Origin: Candidatus Elulimicrobium sp.
GTDB lineage: Bacteria > Patescibacteriota > Minisyncoccia > Phycocordibacterales > UBA918
DNA: 64,000 bases
Reading direction: 5' to 3'
Assembly (NCBI GenBank): GCA_020720815.1
Contig: DYNY01000003.1
Coordinates: 1,002-65,001, forward strand
The notes beneath the pieces are model-generated. The model ran no database searches and was not told the origin of the DNA. It saw nothing but the letters and a program-made list of their open reading frames with translations. This document shows, one piece after another, positions 311 through 9,659 of the stretch (positions are counted from its first letter, which is position 1; every line of letters begins with the position of its first letter). The translations under genes and the position numbers were made by a program.

Positions 311-730
311 ATGTCACTAATAAGATGGGAACCATTTGATGAGTTTGATCGCTTCTTTAGGGAGGTACAACCGCTCGTACCAAATCGCCAGAATTCGATG
401 GGCTTTGATATGGCAGTGGATGTTTATGAGGATGGGAAAGATATTGTGGCGGAAATGAATGTACCAGGACTAAAAGGTGAAGATATCGATGTTGAGGTTG
501 AGGATAGTTATTTAAGGATTTCTGGGCGTCGCGAAGAAGTGCAAGAAAAGAAAGAAAAAAATCATTATGCTAAAGAGATTCGTCGCGGTTCTTTTGAAAG
601 GGTAGTGCAGCTACCCGATGCAGTAGAGCAAGAAGCAGTGAGTGCGCAGTACAAAGACGGTGTACTAAAAGTCGTCATGCCTAAACGAGAAAAGACTGCT
701 GACAAGAAAGTAAAGGTACAAGTGCGGTAG
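311..730 (+). CDS. Hsp20/alpha-crystallin family small heat-shock protein
   Basis: 139 aa with an alpha-crystallin domain signature (…DVYEDGKDIVAEMNVPGLKGEDIDVEVEDSYLRISGRR…GVLKVVMPK). Confidence 0.85.
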   Translation: MSLIRWEPFDEFDRFFREVQPLVPNRQNSMGFDMAVDVYEDGKDIVAEMNVPGLKGEDIDVEVEDSYLRISGRREEVQEKKEKNHYAKEIRRGSFERVVQLPDAVEQEAVSAQYKDGVLKVVMPKREKTADKKVKVQVR

Positions 731-789
731 AGGTAAAATTATATAACCTAGAAACAAAGTTGCGCCCTAAAGGCGCAACTTTGTTTCTA

Positions 790-1353
790 CTAGTCTAGAC
801 CAAGTATTCCTTTAAATTTACTCCAGGTACTAGCCGAAGCTTTAGTTTTGGCTTGTATTTCTCTATTAGAATAACCAGTATTGGGTCCAACCACCGCTTC
901 TCCTTGTGGCAGGTCTGTATACCCATTTATCATTTTAGCATCATAAATTGATCCAGTAATTTCTCCATGTGGTTGAGGTTTGCCGAGGATTCCTTCTGTT
1001 GGTCTTACACTAGCTAGATTTGAGTCTCGATTACCAGCGTATAACCTTTCAGTTGTTGCCTCTTCATCAAATCTAGTATTTTCCCAACCAGTTTTTGTGT
1101 GGTCTTTTAGTTCTAAACCAGCCGACAACTCATCCAGCATTTCCTCATTTAAAATTACTTCTTTTCTTTCAATGCCCTTGGCTATTACATCGGTTGTACT
1201 GAAAGGCTCGTTAGCAGCTTCGTTTCCACCTGATTTTATTAAGTAGTCTACAAATTTTTTATTTTCAAGTTTTATGTCAGGCAAAGAATCATTACCATGT
1301 TCGTCCCAGTTATAAACGGGCCCATCTTTTTTTGCCCTACCTTCAATGCTCAT
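790..1353 (-). CDS. Hypothetical soluble protein (187 aa)
   Basis: Long ORF with protein-like composition. No family recognised and no TM or signal peptide. Confidence 0.4.
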   Translation of the reverse strand: MSIEGRAKKDGPVYNWDEHGNDSLPDIKLENKKFVDYLIKSGGNEAANEPFSTTDVIAKGIERKEVILNEEMLDELSAGLELKDHTKTGWENTRFDEEATTERLYAGNRDSNLASVRPTEGILGKPQPHGEITGSIYDAKMINGYTDLPQGEAVVGPNTGYSNREIQAKTKASASTWSKFKGILGLD

Positions 1354-1712: not shown

Positions 1713-3212
1713 TCACTTCTTCCGCATCAGCTCCGTGACCGGCTCGATCTTACCGGCGGTGAGGCTGAATACGGAATAGCGGTCCTCGTCACCGGCCTTG
1801 GGGCACATTGCGAGCGTACCGCTGTTGAGGCCGTGGTCGCGCAATGCACGGATGCCGTCCATGTTGGCCACCACGATGACTTCCTCCATCTCGCCCTTGA
1901 CGGGAACCGTCAGAAACGAAATGGATTGGGGAGCCATTTTTGCCGTGTTGGTGTGGGACAGAGAAGGTTCTCTGGTCACCGCGGTGACCGCTTGGCGAAC
2001 CTTCCTCGCGCCATCCTTCTTCACCATGAAGGATTCAATCAGTTCCCCGACCTCACCCGTCTTGGTGTTGTAGGAAGTGACGGAGATGCAGAAGGCGCCG
2101 TGTCCGAGCATCAGCCACTCATCGCCGACGACCGGATAGCCGTGACGGCGATCGCCCGAGAGGGTGTGTGCGAAGATGCGCTTGCGACCGGCGATTTCCG
2201 CCCGCTTGGCATCCCGCTCCGCTCGGCGCTTGGCACGCTCTTTTTCAGCGACAGCTTCTTCTTCCATCTTGGCCGCTTGACGTGCTGCGGTCAAGGTTTT
2301 GTTGATGGCTGTGCGAAGTGTTGCCTCGCGTTGCGACCAAATTGGCTCGAGGCCCTCGGCCTGCGCGATCAGTTCCTTCAGTGCGACGAGGTCCTTCAAC
2401 TTGCGACCGCCGATGGATTCACCACCGATGCGTTGACGATGGGAGAGATCCCGTACAGGCACCACTTCGCAGAGGCTCTGCTTGGTCGAGATCATGATGA
2501 CGAGTTCGTCACCGACCTCGCGCAGAAACGCCATCCCGGCAAAACCGTAGTTCTTGTACTCCTTTCCAAAGGACCACATTTCCTGGCCGTCAAAGACGAC
2601 TTGGGCAGGGAGGAACTCGGCATGAGGAGCGGCACGCGGAGATCTCAACTGCTCGATCCTGAAACCCTCGAAGAGGGTGGTTTGCAACTGAAAACCCTTG
2701 CTGTCGGTCTTCTCATCGATGATTCGTTTGTTCAAAAGTGGTGAGAAATGCCCTGCGTAAGAGATTTGTAATTCAGGTAGTGCCCAATCTGTACCTCTTA
2801 CTTTTCCTCGGCAGTTTTTAGCACCACAATGACAATCCCAACTTGATATGTAGTCTTCTCGTGCTTCCCAGAGGGCATAGTCAGCTAAAAGCTCTTCACC
2901 AATAGAAATGTTTCTCCGTGCAATAAGGGTGAAGGCGTCGTCCATCCACACATTTGGGTCGCATGAGTGATTGATAAAGTATGTATCATCTTCACCTCTA
3001 TCCTCTACACTGTATAAGTCATTGTCCCATTGCAGTATGAGTTTTTCTTCTTGCACTGCACGCTCAGCTTCTTCCTTATGTACATATTTACCACCCCACA
3101 CAAGCACTTTCTCACCTAAACAGATTGGACTTGTTGCAAACATTCCCTTACCACCAATCTCGGAGGCTTTGATTTCAATGTTTGGATGTATCCAAGACTG
3201 CGTAGGTATCAT
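1713..3212 (-). CDS. SET-domain (lysine-methyltransferase-like) protein fused to a C-terminal ~345-aa domain encoded by a GC-rich block
   Basis: The N-terminal 150 aa carry the SET hallmarks (…YFINHSCDPNV…, GEELLADY, post-SET CHCGAKNCRG). The remainder, 1713-2750, lies in >60% GC DNA with high GC3 in this frame and includes a charged coiled-coil (KMEEEAVAEKERAKRRAERDAKRAEIAGRKR). Confidence 0.6.
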   Translation of the reverse strand: MIPTQSWIHPNIEIKASEIGGKGMFATSPICLGEKVLVWGGKYVHKEEAERAVQEEKLILQWDNDLYSVEDRGEDDTYFINHSCDPNVWMDDAFTLIARRNISIGEELLADYALWEAREDYISSWDCHCGAKNCRGKVRGTDWALPELQISYAGHFSPLLNKRIIDEKTDSKGFQLQTTLFEGFRIEQLRSPRAAPHAEFLPAQVVFDGQEMWSFGKEYKNYGFAGMAFLREVGDELVIMISTKQSLCEVVPVRDLSHRQRIGGESIGGRKLKDLVALKELIAQAEGLEPIWSQREATLRTAINKTLTAARQAAKMEEEAVAEKERAKRRAERDAKRAEIAGRKRIFAHTLSGDRRHGYPVVGDEWLMLGHGAFCISVTSYNTKTGEVGELIESFMVKKDGARKVRQAVTAVTREPSLSHTNTAKMAPQSISFLTVPVKGEMEEVIVVANMDGIRALRDHGLNSGTLAMCPKAGDEDRYSVFSLTAGKIEPVTELMRKK

Positions 3213-3448: not shown

Positions 3449-5062
3449 TTATGAGTTCATAAGTGGAAAGAGGTAAGCATACCCTTCTTTTTCCATATTA
3501 CTTTGTGAAATAAAACGGAGTGATGCAGAATTCATACAATATCGCTTACCACCCCTATCTGCTGGCCCATCATCGAACACATGCCCGAGATGTGAGTCAG
3601 CAAAGCGCGATCGGACTTCAGTTCGCTTTGTAAAGAGTGTACTGTCTTTGTGTAGCACAACTGCGTCATCCGTAATCGGTTTTACAAATGACGGCCACCC
3701 GGTGCCAGAGTCATATTTATCCTTTGAGAAATACAACGGTTCCCCCGATACAATGTCTACATAGATTCCCTCAACATCATTCTTATCATACTCGTTCTTA
3801 AATGGCGTTTCGGTTCCATCCTCTTGTGTCACCTCATACTGAATTGATGTGAGGCGAGCACGAAGAACTTCAGGGGAAGGCTTCATAAAACTTTGCCAAG
3901 AGTTTTCTTTGGAAGTTATAGTACTTGATCCTGGTTCAGTCCATATACTCGGAGTAACAAACGTATTTGCGGAATCGCCCCAATATTTTTTAATAAATGT
4001 ATCTCTTCCTGAGGCAGTGCGATATAAGTTGTACCGAACTGGATTCTTCTCAGAATAATCTTGATGATATTCTTCAGCTGCCCAAAATGGTACTCGCGGA
4101 GTGACCAGAAGCGGCAATGGATTAGGAAATGTACGAAGTGCATCAACCGTGTCAATGATCCGACGTGCTTCAATCTTTTCGATATCATTTTCGTAGAATA
4201 TTGCTGGTGCATATTCTTTTCCTCGATCACCGAAGGATCCTTCCGCGTCCGTTGGGTCACCGTGTTTAATGATATGTTCGACGAGGTTCCCAAATGTTAG
4301 GGTATTTGCATCATATGTTACCAACACTACTTCACGATGACCACCTTCCTCATAATTCTTATAGGTAGGATTCTCGGTAGACCCGCCCGCGTATCCCGAC
4401 ACTACATCAATAACCCCTGTAACTTCTTCAAGATCATGCTCCACGCACCAGAAACATCCGTTTGCAAGTAGAGCAGTCTTTTTCGACATCTCGTAATTTT
4501 GTTGTCCTGTGGTGGTGCTAGGAATTGGTATTTCGGCGGACTTGCTCATGTCATCACCGTCTTGCATAGAATCTTCAACACTCAATTCGTTTGAAGTTAA
4601 TCCACTAATACTAATGTCCGCGTAGTTAAACAAAACACCAAACTGTTTACACCACGTCATCACGTATTTATAATCAGAAATATCTACCTCTGCAGGAATA
4701 ATGTAGTTGATATTACCCTCTGTGCCACGTAGCTCCCCAAGACTCACAAACTCCTTACCTTCAAGATCTTTGCTTAAATATACAAATAAATCTGGGCCAT
4801 TGATTGTCTTGAAATTTTCATAACAAATAGTTTTTCCTTCCGGAGAATCAATGAGTCTTACGGTTCCTTCAGCTGGATGCCCAACTGTACCCATAACAGG
4901 ATAGCTCTCAACAATCATGACCTCGTCTTTACTACTAGAAACACTTAGCATTACTGGGGCTTCTTCGTTAAGTGTAACTGTTTTAAAGGTTGGAGAGATG
5001 GTGTAATAACCAAAACCGATGAGCACCGTGGCGACGACTGCAATAATTATTTTATTTAACAT
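3449..5062 (-). CDS. msrAB: Membrane-anchored/secreted DM13-MsrA-MsrB fusion (peptide methionine sulfoxide reductase A/B)
   Basis: N-terminal TM helix. DM13-like segment (…[37 protein letters not shown]…). MsrA motif GCFWCVEH…YAGG…NPTY. MsrB motifs (…GWPSF…HLGHVF…, CxxC pairs). Confidence 0.8.
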
Positions 5063-5086
5063 ATACTAATAAGTATATACAAAACA

Positions 5087-5119
5087 AGGAGAATGTAAAG
5101 TTAACTTTACATTCTCCTT
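5087..5119. promoter_or_regulatory. Perfect 33-bp palindrome containing TGTAAAG-N4-CTTTACA, a candidate operator and/or terminator
   Basis: aaggagaatgtaaagttaactttacattctcctt lies between the stop of the DUF2178 gene and the start of msrAB, 25 nt upstream of the msrAB start codon. Confidence 0.5.
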
Positions 5120-5134
5120 AGAGGATAACTCTTT

Positions 5135-5497
5135 TTATCGATTTTTGTCGCTCCAGATGCGCGTAGCAATCTTTGCAACAATCATCACGACCAGCGAAAC
5201 AACGAGCCACGGGTCGACGGTATGTGTATACCCCTCTACAACAATACCCAGAATGAGAAGAGCAGAACCTGCAAGAAATGCGTTTCTCCCCGCAAGGGTC
5301 TCATGCACAGCATCTCGTTCGTCAACAGTCTTCTCACGTAAAATAAAACTTGCAAATATTCCAAAGAGTACTAGTGTGAGAACAAGCATACCCACAACCA
5401 TCATGTCGGGCATCCAAAAGTCAAAAGGATTGAGAAGTAGCACAGCAATAAGTATCAGAAGTAGGGTAGTAAATATTTCAGAAAGATTATTTTTCAT
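5135..5497 (-). CDS. DUF2178-like small polytopic membrane protein, partner of the adjacent XRE regulator
   Basis: Four predicted TM helices. The start is taken at MKNNLSE…, with the ORF track starting 8 codons earlier at 5521. It overlaps the XRE gene stop by a few nt, which is the typical XRE-DUF2178 operon layout. Confidence 0.55.
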
Positions 5498-5699
5498 ACG
5501 ATATGGTAAATAGTTTCTCAACAGACACTTTGAAAAAGTGCGCTATCTTGAGTGCTAATAAAATTGACGGCGTGTAGTTACCTTTTTCAAGCGCAATGAT
5601 AGTCTGACGACTTACGCCCACTGCGCGCGCAAGATCTTCTTGGGTGATTCCTAAATTCACCCGGTAATCAGGTACTTTATTTTTTATACTCTCCTGCAT
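5487..5699 (-). CDS. XRE-family helix-turn-helix transcriptional regulator (70 aa)
   Basis: HTH_3 signature …[49 protein letters not shown]. Confidence 0.8.
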
Positions 5700-5730
5700 A
5701 GTAATATATGTTATAGAGTTTTGATGAGTA

Positions 5731-5748
5731 TGTAAAGTTTTCTTTACA
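5731..5748. promoter_or_regulatory. TGTAAAG-tttt-CTTTACA palindrome in the divergent XRE/msrB intergenic region, a candidate operator
   Basis: Same half-sites as the 5087-5119 palindrome. A third, imperfect copy aGTAAAG-taga-CTTTACa sits at 5825-5842. Confidence 0.45.
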
Positions 5749-5955
5749 CGGGATCACTTGCTTATTGAACTACGTCGTTTACTTACGACAGGGTAGTTCA
5801 ATTGGTCGTTGCAAAAGTTTTAAAAGTAAAGTAGACTTTACATCGGGAAGTGTGAAATTGTAACAATAGTAAAGAAGTAAAAAATAATTAGTATAACCAA
5901 AGTTTCAAAATTATCTTTGACTTGATTGTGTTTATCTATATTAAATCCCACCCGT

Positions 5956-6360
5956 ATGATATCTGACGAACAATTGAAGAAAGTTAACCCCGAATTGTAT
6001 AAAATTGCTCGAGAGGGTGGTACCGAAGCCCCACACTCCAGCGATCTGTTGTATGTTGACGATAATGGAACTTTCCACTGCGCAGTTTGCAACGCGCTGC
6101 TATTTGACTCGGAAACTAAGTTTGATTCCGGATCAGGTTGGCCCTCTTTTACAGATCCAATAAATAAAGAGGCCGTCACCCTCATCCATGATCATAGTCA
6201 TGGGATGCGAAGAACAGAAGTCCGTTGCAGTAATTGCAAGGCGCACTTAGGGCATGTCTTCCCTGATGGTCCAGAACGAACCGGTGGTGGAGAAAGAGAC
6301 TTTGGGCGTCACAATCGATATTGTATCAATGGCATTTCGCTTGAAATGCATAATAAATAA
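5956..6360 (+). CDS. msrB: Peptide methionine sulfoxide reductase MsrB (SelR)
   Basis: CAVCNALLFDSETKFDSGSGWPSF…CSNCKAHLGHVF, the Zn-binding CxxC pairs and the catalytic region. The start is taken at MISDEQ, while the track ORF begins 10 codons upstream. Confidence 0.85.
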   Translation: MISDEQLKKVNPELYKIAREGGTEAPHSSDLLYVDDNGTFHCAVCNALLFDSETKFDSGSGWPSFTDPINKEAVTLIHDHSHGMRRTEVRCSNCKAHLGHVFPDGPERTGGGERDFGRHNRYCINGISLEMHNK

Positions 6361-6363
6361 TTT

Positions 6364-6861
6364 ATGTCACAAAATTACAAAAAGGCTGTGGTGGCAGGGG
6401 GTTGTTTTTGGGGACTTGAAGACTTACTTCGAACACAGCCTGGCATTGTCGAGACTGAGACAGGTTATGCTGGCGGAAAAAATGCTAATCCGACATACGA
6501 ATCTCACCCAGGTCATGCTGAAGCCGTGGAAATTACTTACGACCCTTCAGTTACCGCCTACAAAAATATTCTTGACTTCTTTTTTCAAATCCATAACCCA
6601 ACAACTCTAAATCAGCAAGGAAATGATAAGGGTACTTCATACCGTTCTACAATCTTTTTCGCCACTAAGGAAGAAAAAGATACGGCGGAAGAGATGATAG
6701 GTATTGTAAATGAGTCTGGTCGATGGAATGAGCCTGTTGTCACAACACTTGAGCCGCTGACACGTTTTTGGCCAGCTGTAGATTATCACCAAGATTATCT
6801 ACAGAAGAGTCCTGGTGGTTATACGTGCCATGCCATATATTTTGATAGCTATCTGCAGTAG
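6364..6861 (+). CDS. msrA: Peptide methionine sulfoxide reductase MsrA
   Basis: AGGCFWGLE…GYAGG…NPTYE…HAEAV, the canonical MsrA active-site region. Confidence 0.9.
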   Translation: MSQNYKKAVVAGGCFWGLEDLLRTQPGIVETETGYAGGKNANPTYESHPGHAEAVEITYDPSVTAYKNILDFFFQIHNPTTLNQQGNDKGTSYRSTIFFATKEEKDTAEEMIGIVNESGRWNEPVVTTLEPLTRFWPAVDYHQDYLQKSPGGYTCHAIYFDSYLQ

Positions 6862-7185
6862 TAACTACACACTATATTTTTACCCTAAAATAAGATTCTA
6901 AAAAACAAACCCAAAATCCTCACTAGGGAAACGTTTGACTAGAACCAAAATGTCCCCTGTTTAGGGGACATTTTGGTGTTTTTATATTCTGGGCGACGTC
7001 GTAGAGAAAGTTAGAGTGTGTTTGATTGTTTGAGTGATTTGAGTGTCTATATTCCAGTGTTTAGTACAATACTGAATAGATTACCCTTGGCAATCCGCAT
7101 GGACTATCTTTTGTTGAGAGAAGCAACAAAATCATCTACTGTTTCAAAAACCTCTAGCTCTCCATCCTCAAAAGACTATTCAGCG

Positions 7186-9601: not shown

Positions 9602-9659
9602 TTTTTAAGCTATAATTTAAGTAAGGTTAACTTTAGCACTATTAATTAATAAAATAAAC

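Follow-up and report, generated by a model that had tools for sequence, protein, structure and literature searches.

A putative CylR2-like XRE regulator, its membrane partner and a conserved candidate operator at envelope redox-repair genes of Paceibacteria

Overall organization of the locus

This study examined a 64,000-nucleotide (nt) stretch of DNA from Candidatus Elulimicrobium sp. (contig DYNY01000003.1 of assembly GCA_020720815.1; hereafter the window), in which a gene for a small XRE-family helix-turn-helix (HTH) protein and an overlapping gene for a small membrane protein are accompanied by three copies of a palindromic sequence (dyad), here called O1, O2 and O3. O1 lies on the predicted promoter of the XRE gene, while O2 lies beyond the membrane gene on the predicted promoter of the next gene downstream, and both recur at fixed positions in related genomes together with the two-gene module and the redox-repair genes that follow it. 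The XRE protein is probably a repressor of the CylR2 kind, acting on its own operon and on the adjacent repair operon, with the four-helix membrane protein as its presumed sensor. The locus would then represent a triplet of regulator, operator and regulon conserved in approximately 80 species of Patescibacteria, and it would tie a widespread module of an XRE protein and a small membrane protein to the repair of oxidised envelope proteins.

The module consists of a gene for an XRE/Cro-C1 HTH protein (5487-5699, minus strand; 70 amino acids (aa), a single CylR2-like domain recognised by its HTH_3 match) and a gene from the open reading frame (ORF) list for its membrane partner (5135-5497, minus strand; 120 aa, four helices, DUF2178-like). 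The two ORFs overlap by 11 nt, an arrangement that is predicted to couple translation of the membrane gene to that of the XRE gene. Next on the minus strand is a 537-aa DM13-MsrA-MsrB fusion (3449-5062), found in the ORF list and by its Pfam matches to DM13 (E = 3.6e-16), PMSR (1.5e-43) and SelR (3.5e-45); its hydrophobic N-terminus suggests that the protein is membrane-anchored or secreted, and it would be the O2-controlled gene in the window lineage. The features that a sequence-only reading of this locus had described were all recovered with small corrections, its coordinates being right to within 1-2 nt.

The dyad in the window

A search of the 64 kb for TGTAAAGNNNNCTTTACA (TGTAAAG-N4-CTTTACA) with up to two mismatches returned three matches, all inside 750 bp, compared to an expectation of 0.40 and with none of 100 shuffled sequences reaching three. 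As the sequence-only reading had reported, two copies are perfect (O2, 5094-5111, and O1, 5731-5748) and one is imperfect (O3, 5825-5842). O2 sits within a longer palindrome near the start of the msrAB fusion gene, which is present, perfect and terminator-like as that reading had claimed, but which measures 34 bp (17+17; 5086-5119) instead of 33 bp and ends 23 nt, not 25 nt, 5' of the msrAB ATG (5062). The core of this palindrome, ATGTAAAG-TTAA-CTTTACAT (5093-5112), is the candidate operator. On the minus strand the palindrome is predicted to be a terminator (16 pairs, then TTTTGT) with a folding energy of -22.9 kcal/mol (z = -6.0), and it combines a hairpin, a T-run after a gene and, in relatives, compensatory changes, as rho-independent terminators do. 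It is the predicted intrinsic-terminator hairpin of the XRE-membrane operon.

The same element carries part of the predicted promoter of the msrAB fusion (5072-5099, minus strand; 10 of 12 matches in the promoter scan). The -35 box of this promoter, TTTACA (5099-5094), is the O2 half-site nearest to the msrAB gene and is separated by a 16-nt spacer from the -10 box TATACT (5077-5072), with the ATG 9 nt further on. O1 (TGTAAAG-TTTT-CTTTACA) overlaps the -35 box of the XRE promoter predicted by the same scan (5708-5736, minus strand) in a similar manner: the -35 box TTTACA (5736-5731) is an O1 half-site, the spacer is 17 nt, the -10 box is TAACAT (5713-5708), and the XRE ATG follows after 8 nt. 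O3 (AGTAAAG-TAGA-CTTTACA, one mismatch) lies in the divergent intergenic region, towards msrB. A laxer search of the window for a 12-base core gave five further matches where about four were expected, and candidates for additional regulon members in the window, such as 9621-9636 before mscL (two mismatches), were rejected as chance-level matches.

Conservation of the module and dyad in Paceibacteria

More than 670 homologues of the membrane protein were found at 69-100% identity, and those with named sources came from Patescibacteria or Paceibacteria. A scan using one genome per species yielded 80 loci (L005-L084, 595 kb), with sources named as Nomura-, Kaiser-, Taylor-, Zambryski-, Yonath-, Campbell- and Lloydbacteria, among others. 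Every locus with sufficient upstream sequence contains the XRE gene at 60-80% identity, and the same XRE/membrane gene overlap (...YEK* / MKNN...) occurs in nearly all loci. Across these 80 species the dyad is found at two fixed positions, O1 and O2, and essentially nowhere else. O1 (two mismatches or fewer) precedes the XRE gene in 67 of 77 assessable loci, and in most species it ends 26-44 nt 5' of the XRE ATG; the right half of O1 forms the -35 box of a promoter with a spacer of 17 or 16 nt and a -10 box that is mostly TATAAT. O2 lies 7-70 nt 3' of the membrane gene in 76 of 79 species, with perfect half-sites in 74 loci and a single mismatch in two more, and all 76 O2-bearing loci have TATACT or TATAAT next, after 17 nt in 69 loci and after 16 nt in seven. 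The two doubts that the sequence-only reading had raised about its own proposal, namely that the palindrome might lack conservation in relatives or might be scattered over many unrelated sites, were thus not borne out, as no unrelated copy with one mismatch or fewer was found in the window or in the 595 kb of related loci. The sole additional copy is in L080, where two identical O2 sites (4398 and 4693), spaced 295 bp, precede the thioredoxin gene.

By information content, the conserved element is an 8-4-8 dyad, ATGTAAAG-N4-CTTTACAT, with a variable spacer. The flanks of O1 are unpaired, with a median extension of 1 bp and pairing of 41-55%, the chance level for their composition. The flanks of O2 are variable in sequence yet paired, with a median extension of 7 bp. 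Within O2, seven of the inner eight pairs are the same in all 76 distinct sequences and the eighth differs in two of them; invariance also holds for the flanking A (position -1) and T (position +18) and for the spacer-adjacent G and C. The outer seven pairs covary instead, with 128 double-change cells compared to 42 +/- 5 in shuffles (none of 500 as high) and a covariation score of 0.292 versus 0.088 in shuffles and 0.06-0.13 with slid partners. Two constraints that can be told apart thus act on O2, an RNA hairpin being maintained through the outer stem and T-run and a sequence through the core, since an invariant core is not needed by the hairpin alone. In this compact design, the sequence-level and structure-level constraints can be read separately.

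One potential explanation for these patterns is that O2 is a terminator overlapping the next promoter by chance, with the XRE protein regulating itself at most and the repair operon expressed constitutively; the -35 box would be kept for the sigma factor and the other arm would be kept by pairing. The hairpin and T-run are indeed real and covarying, and the right half of O2 is a -35 box at a fixed spacing from the -10 box. This explanation is nevertheless very unlikely, given that O1 keeps both dyad halves without a hairpin, that the dyad also lies 5' of XRE-membrane modules in unrelated phyla (see below), and that the invariant A and T at -1 and +18 and the spacer-adjacent G and C fall outside the -35 hexamer. 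Moreover, O2 fits the dyad better than does O1, which is usually imperfect, and three of the four loci without a redox operon have no O2, though their XRE-membrane operon would still need a terminator.

Several variations on the common arrangement were observed. Most species (e.g., L009 4387-4390) share a conserved (AT)CCAC that falls after the stop codon and immediately 5' of the O2 stem, where the window has CTCT. In L045, L068 and L078, the XRE protein (at approximately 3752-3958; 1600-1806 in L068) carries a C-terminal extension (...YDPSIKTQGHGE), the XRE/membrane gene overlap is gone, and the membrane gene starts approximately 45-70 nt later. In L004 (448-1011), the membrane protein is 100% identical to that of the window, but a frameshift splits the XRE gene, the O1 copy has the degenerate sequence CGTAAAG-GCAA-CTTTACT, and the region upstream contains a DUF1905 gene.

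Redox-repair genes downstream of O2

In the related loci, the upstream neighbours of the XRE-membrane module are variable while the downstream genes are conserved. Among the 75 loci with at least 1.5 kb of downstream sequence, the first gene after O2 on the same strand is a redox gene in 71, all of which have O2. This gene encodes an anchored thioredoxin (Trx) in 60 loci, a CcdA fusion in eight, a DM13-MsrA-MsrB protein like that of the window in two (L005 and L020), and the first member of an msrB-msrA-DM13 arrangement in one. The thioredoxin gene is followed by a CcdA/DsbD_TM fusion, joined either to MsrA-MsrB or to Redoxin plus Thioredoxin_10 (DipZ-like), and msrB, msrA and another msrB often come after either fusion. 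Pfam matches in L009 (Trx, DsbD_TM, PMSR and SelR) and in L027 (DsbD_TM, Redoxin and Thioredoxin_10) illustrate these arrangements. Because the downstream genes are conserved and the upstream genes variable, the conserved unit is the XRE gene, the membrane gene, O2 and an operon for envelope thiol and methionine-sulfoxide repair. The sequence-only reading had linked the module to genes for methionine sulfoxide reductase (Msr); that association holds in the sense that a redox gene comes first after O2, but the partner is a combined thiol and Msr repair operon and not msr alone.

Neither a Trx nor a CcdA gene was found in the 64-kb window, where the anchored DM13-MsrA-MsrB fusion is present instead. 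In other species, msrB-msrA genes are located on the same strand as the Trx-CcdA genes after O2; in the window lineage, they have moved to the other side of the XRE-membrane module, with O3 in their upstream region.

Another potential explanation is that the XRE-membrane pair is a selfish or defence module, in which an antitoxin and a membrane toxin regulate themselves and the redox neighbours carry no regulatory meaning. Small XRE proteins are common antitoxins, similar modules occur across phyla in varied contexts, and weak matches to NCBIfam antitoxin models of the Y4mF/HipB type were obtained, all of which fell below their cut-offs (the best, Y4mF, scored 43 bits against 71.65, short of a type II toxin-antitoxin assignment). 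However, the pair has been inherited vertically within Paceibacteria at 60-80% identity, its synteny is fixed downstream and variable upstream, a perfect candidate operator is located exactly on the downstream promoter, and no toxin family in Pfam or NCBIfam was matched, making a selfish module highly improbable.

Additional gene arrangements were observed near the module. Three of the four loci without redox genes also lack O2. L037, L064 and L084, which have neither O2 nor a redox operon, carry a variant right half of O1 (CTGTACA) and encode a 253-285-aa unannotated protein with no Pfam match directly after the membrane gene. Stand-alone anchored DM13 proteins recur (L007 3244-3699, L008 3244-3699, L063 3233-3697, L076 1375-1845, L048 from 8146 and L058 5376-5867), with some of their genes divergent from O1 approximately 100 nt from the XRE ATG and others after msrA; DM13 may be part of the electron supply to envelope Msr in lineages without Trx-CcdA at the locus. 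In P0267 (246 aa), the N-terminal half of the membrane family (residues 2-81) is joined to Redoxin and Thioredoxin_10 fragments, representing either a real sensor-redox fusion or a gene-calling artefact across O2.

The XRE protein and its link to the dyad

The window XRE protein belongs to the HTH_3 family (PF01381; E = 1e-15 for residues 12-63, scoring 57.9 bits where the cut-off is 23). Its best match in the PDB by phmmer is an uncharacterised PbsX-family regulator (9k3w, 6.4e-11), followed by CylR2 (5.5e-9), a similarity that places it in a CylR2-like subfamily, and a match to the 434 repressor was also found (E = 3e-4). BLASTP aligned 47 aa of the protein with CylR2 at 49% identity (E = 3e-15), and the two share the same VSRQTI recognition helix. 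Across the 80 species the HTH segment hardly varies; co-variation between the recognition helix and the operator was therefore uninformative, both being essentially invariant.

An exact search for the 20-mer in metagenome contigs gave at least 120 loci (L085-L204). Among the matches listed, 58 of 120 have an XRE homologue within 700 nt of the 20-mer, and XRE density near the 20-mer (0.385 per kb) is 59-fold higher than further away (0.0065 per kb). Fourteen of these 58 listed loci follow the Paceibacteria layout, in which the motif is 3' of the module (the Paceibacteria membrane gene occurs in 16 of the 120), while the other 44 come from DNA of 28-72% GC and have the dyad 5' of the module in every case. 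In 34 of the 44, again among the matches listed, the XRE gene has an adjacent partner with multiple transmembrane (TM) helices, the order being membrane-XRE in 26, as in cylR1-cylR2, and XRE-membrane in eight. Examples of loci outside the Paceibacteria scan with the 20-mer 5' of the module include L094 (11956), L108 (755), L117 (540), L138 (1757), L178 (5945), L189 (1237) and L203 (976). A single operator sequence, ATGTAAAG-N4-CTTTACAT, thus appears to be common to such modules across phyla.

These patterns support the suggestion of the sequence-only reading that the palindrome has the character of an operator for the adjacent HTH protein, with respect to its position, its co-occurrence with XRE genes among the listed matches and its resemblance to the CylR2 half-site. 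Given the invariant recognition helix and half-sites, the cross-phylum co-occurrence and the CylR2 precedent, we infer that the adjacent XRE protein binds the dyad, which is the best-supported interpretation of the site. Alternatively, another regulator encoded elsewhere could bind the dyad, with the adjacent XRE protein recognising a different site. This alternative draws on the fact that part of each genome was examined and that the link between protein and site is deduced from sequence comparisons, but it is extremely improbable in view of the XRE homologues near the dyad in nearly half of the independent metagenome matches listed and of a CylR2 operator with 6 of 7 half-site bases identical.

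No common gene content was found around the 62 listed metagenome matches without a nearby XRE gene, L145 apart. In L145, an exact dyad (947-966) has a divergent msrA (382-912, minus strand) on one side and an ATP-binding cassette (ABC) transporter ATPase gene (995-1786) on the other, with TTTACA-17-CATACT located 6 nt 5' of the ATPase ATG and no XRE gene in 5.5 kb. This locus may be a distant regulon member.

The membrane partner

The window membrane protein gave no match to DUF2178 (PF09946) even at E <= 10, precomputed hits were of the 'weak' grade only, and no match was found among 23 close relatives using current Pfam. The DUF2178 label given by the sequence-only reading was accordingly downgraded to DUF2178-like, in keeping with the layout of that type, a small membrane protein of four helices whose gene adjoins an XRE gene. 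Its wider proposal of an XRE-DUF2178 pair regulating oxidative repair keeps the gene association and the sites but loses the family membership, and the role of the membrane protein as a sensor is presumed by analogy. Other Pfam and NCBIfam identities for the protein and its relatives were rejected, the matches being to membrane families at noise level and to no toxin family.

The family comprises 495 representatives at 50% clustering (E <= 1e-3). An AlphaFold2 model of moderate confidence (predicted local distance difference test score 67.5) places helices at residues 5-21, 31-54, 61-90 and 96-119. Conserved positions, derived from 139 representatives with 31-57% identity to the window protein, can be summarised as NP..MP, E..DERE..H..AGR and DPWL. 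The first loop carries N23-P24 and M29-P30, the loop leading into helix 3 carries E55 and D59-E60-R61-(E/D), helix 3 opens with H65 and A69-G70-R71, and the third loop carries D95-P96-W97-L98. If the N-terminus is inside, loops one and three would face outward and the DER loop would be cytoplasmic. The DER motif recurs in partners from other phyla, and CylR1 contains KKDERIL.

Proposed mechanism of regulation

In the proposed mechanism, an XRE dimer would recognise the 20-bp dyad ATGTAAAG-N4-CTTTACAT, in which the half-site nearest the gene holds the -35 sequence TTTACA. Binding at O1 would limit transcription of the two-gene XRE-membrane operon, while binding at O2 would block the strong TTTACA-N16/17-TATACT promoter of the adjacent repair operon, with tighter repression at the perfect O2 than at the usually imperfect O1. 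As O2 would be built into the stem of the terminator ending the XRE-membrane operon, a single 34-bp palindrome is proposed to act as terminator, operator and -35 box at once. The membrane protein, made in fixed proportion to the XRE protein through the 11-nt overlap, would relay an envelope signal that lowers operator occupancy; this signal would most plausibly be oxidative, because the putative regulon is one of oxidative repair.

The position of the dyad also raises the possibility of activation. Lambda CI (at OR2, for PRM) and the controller proteins of restriction-modification systems activate transcription from near -39. The dyad centre is approximately 3.5 bp upstream of the -35 hexamer, or roughly at -39, so the XRE protein could bind the dyads but activate the repair operon in a class II manner like that of lambda CI, with the membrane partner holding it inactive until a signal arrives. 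The related regulator GakR provides a precedent, having been reported to be a positive regulator despite the inverted repeat in its promoter (bioRxiv 10.64898/2026.09.04.749385). However, the half-site is the -35 hexamer itself, whose bases would be contested by the sigma factor and the XRE protein; near-consensus boxes at optimal spacing are typical of repressed promoters; and CylR2, the closest characterised relative, represses. Activation is therefore rather unlikely, and the near-consensus -35 and -10 boxes fit a promoter in need of repression.

Several points weigh against repression by the XRE protein with the membrane protein as sensor. The organisms are uncultured and the interpretation rests on sequence, the dyad scan of the organism's own genome covered 64 kb and the regulon is possibly larger, and an msr gene occurs within 4 kb in only 44 of the 75 loci. 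The operator centre is compatible with activation, as discussed above, and if O2 is considered by itself, a -35 box forced to pair in the stem could account for the palindrome. The membrane protein scores below the DUF2178 gathering threshold of 22.8 bits, with distant family members reaching 13.9-15.0 bits. A profile comparison (hhalign) with CylR1 found no similarity (probability 0.6%), for which reason homology of the membrane partners was dropped and they are treated as analogous. Finally, O3 is restricted to one lineage and has no convincing -10 box at 16-18 nt in the window sequence.

O3 was seen only in the window and the near-identical L001-L003, with its centre 94 bp, or approximately nine helical turns, from that of O1. 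It precedes the plus-strand genes for a cytoplasmic MsrB (5956-6360, 134 aa; SelR 4.4e-43; listed as ORF 5926-6360, with 5956 the likely ATG) and a cytoplasmic MsrA (6364-6861, 165 aa; PMSR 3.9e-56), which are divergent from the minus-strand XRE, membrane and fusion genes. An msrB promoter using O3 as its -35 box is doubtful, as the best -10 box, TAACAA at 18 nt, does not have the conserved final T, and an alternative -10 box (TATATT, 5937-5942) has no -35 box. O3 may be an extra operator, a -35 box for msrB-msrA or an auxiliary site.

A bolder and tentative extension, which is possible though doubtful at present, is that the XRE protein and its four-TM partner form a kinase-free device that directly senses oxidative damage in the envelope and switches on its repair, using an operator shared across phyla. 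The sensing elements may include the conserved Met-Pro and Asp-Pro-Trp motifs of the two modelled outer loops. The genomes of Paceibacteria and other Patescibacteria are tiny and encode few regulators, almost none of which have been characterised. If the extension is correct, the pair would be the main oxidative-stress regulator of Paceibacteria, and the shared operator would give XRE-DUF2178 and CylR1/CylR2-type modules a common, testable mechanism. The loci would also add further cases of kinase-less signalling of the CylR1/CylR2 type, the mechanism of which is not understood (PMC3709268).

Comparison with known systems

The closest characterised counterpart is the CylR2/CylR1 system. Rumpel et al. 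reportedly described DNA binding by CylR2 in 2004. CylR2 and CylR1 form a kinase-less two-protein regulator of the Enterococcus faecalis cytolysin operon, in which CylR2 binds the repeat in the cyl promoter and represses it, while the membrane protein CylR1, encoded by an overlapping upstream gene, is needed for induction (PDB 1UTX; PMC3709268). The cytolysin promoter, as read from a pAD1-type plasmid, contains TGTCAAG-N5-CTTGACA (L205 857-875), which includes TTGACA, a sequence resembling a -35 box. The systems are alike in having a single-domain XRE protein of 66-70 aa, with the identity to CylR2 extending over the HTH and C-terminal helices; in co-transcription of the XRE gene with an overlapping gene for a small multi-TM protein (an overlapping four-TM gene in all 80 species); and in a promoter-overlapping dyad whose half-sites share 6 of 7 bases (TGTCAAG/CTTGACA in cyl versus TGTAAAG/CTTTACA here). 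They differ in gene order (membrane gene first in cyl, XRE gene first here), in half-site spacer (5 nt versus 4 nt), and in the membrane partner, CylR1 having three TM helices instead of four and sharing only a short K-DER motif after a TM helix. In addition, the cyl target is a lantibiotic toxin operon responding to a peptide signal on a plasmid or pathogenicity island of a Firmicute, whereas redox repair genes at a core chromosomal locus of Patescibacteria are involved here. Based on these comparisons, the system would be a regulator of the CylR2/CylR1 kind that differs in its partner, its redox-repair target, its Patescibacteria host and its terminator-fused operator.

Modules of the XRE-DUF2178 type resemble the Paceibacteria locus in that a small XRE gene overlaps the gene of a membrane protein with four helices, approximately 120-150 aa and a cytoplasmic DER motif before TM3, and the same dyad is found 5' of such modules in L117 (23.5 bits), L178 (19.6) and L203 (18.6), scored against the DUF2178 cut-off of 22.8. 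The Paceibacteria family differs in its own invariant motifs (NPFx..., DPWL) and in a second candidate operator aimed at the neighbouring operon. The phage 434 and lambda repressors offer a more distant analogy, in which a dimer with the XRE fold regulates its own synthesis from a dyad that overlaps the -35 box and has 11 bp between its half-site centres; the proteins described here would resemble them in these respects but have no C-terminal oligomerisation or cleavage domain and no lysis-lysogeny context, and they have a membrane partner.

The genes after O2 resemble known envelope repair systems in encoding an anchored thioredoxin, a CcdA/DsbD conduit, and MsrA-MsrB or a redoxin with Thioredoxin_10. 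Neisseria PilB/MsrAB and Mycobacterium DipZ are among the comparators, and other envelope Msr systems are controlled by extracytoplasmic function (ECF) sigma factors. Further examples are CcdA-Etrx-MsrAB2 of Streptococcus pneumoniae and Trx-CcdA-MsrAB of Fusobacterium nucleatum, the latter reportedly being controlled by the two-component system ModRS (PMC9239216). Compared to these systems, which use kinases or ECF sigma factors, an XRE-membrane pair would be the regulator here; CcdA is fused to MsrA-MsrB or redoxin in the Paceibacteria relatives, and DM13 replaces Trx and CcdA in the window lineage. Within the literature library searched, no paper was found that mentions DUF2178 or describes the present system.

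Other features of the window

A terminator is called 3' of msrA (6944-6977). Further from the module, a GC-rich island (0.53-0.60 compared to approximately 0.40 in its surroundings) spans 1601-2800, inside the C-terminal two-thirds of a 499-aa ORF (1713-3212, minus strand) that has a domain match at its N-terminus only (SET, 3e-12); a 350-aa ORF is found on the opposite strand. The island may represent foreign DNA, a chimeric assembly or an unusual gene.

No Shine-Dalgarno sequence precedes the msrAB fusion, the XRE gene or possibly msrB, and the predicted -10 boxes lie 8-13 nt 5' of their ATGs (5062-5077, 5699-5713 and 5937-5958, respectively), which suggests that these mRNAs are leaderless or nearly so in the window. 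The thioredoxin gene of most relatives is instead preceded by a leader of 55-75 nt.

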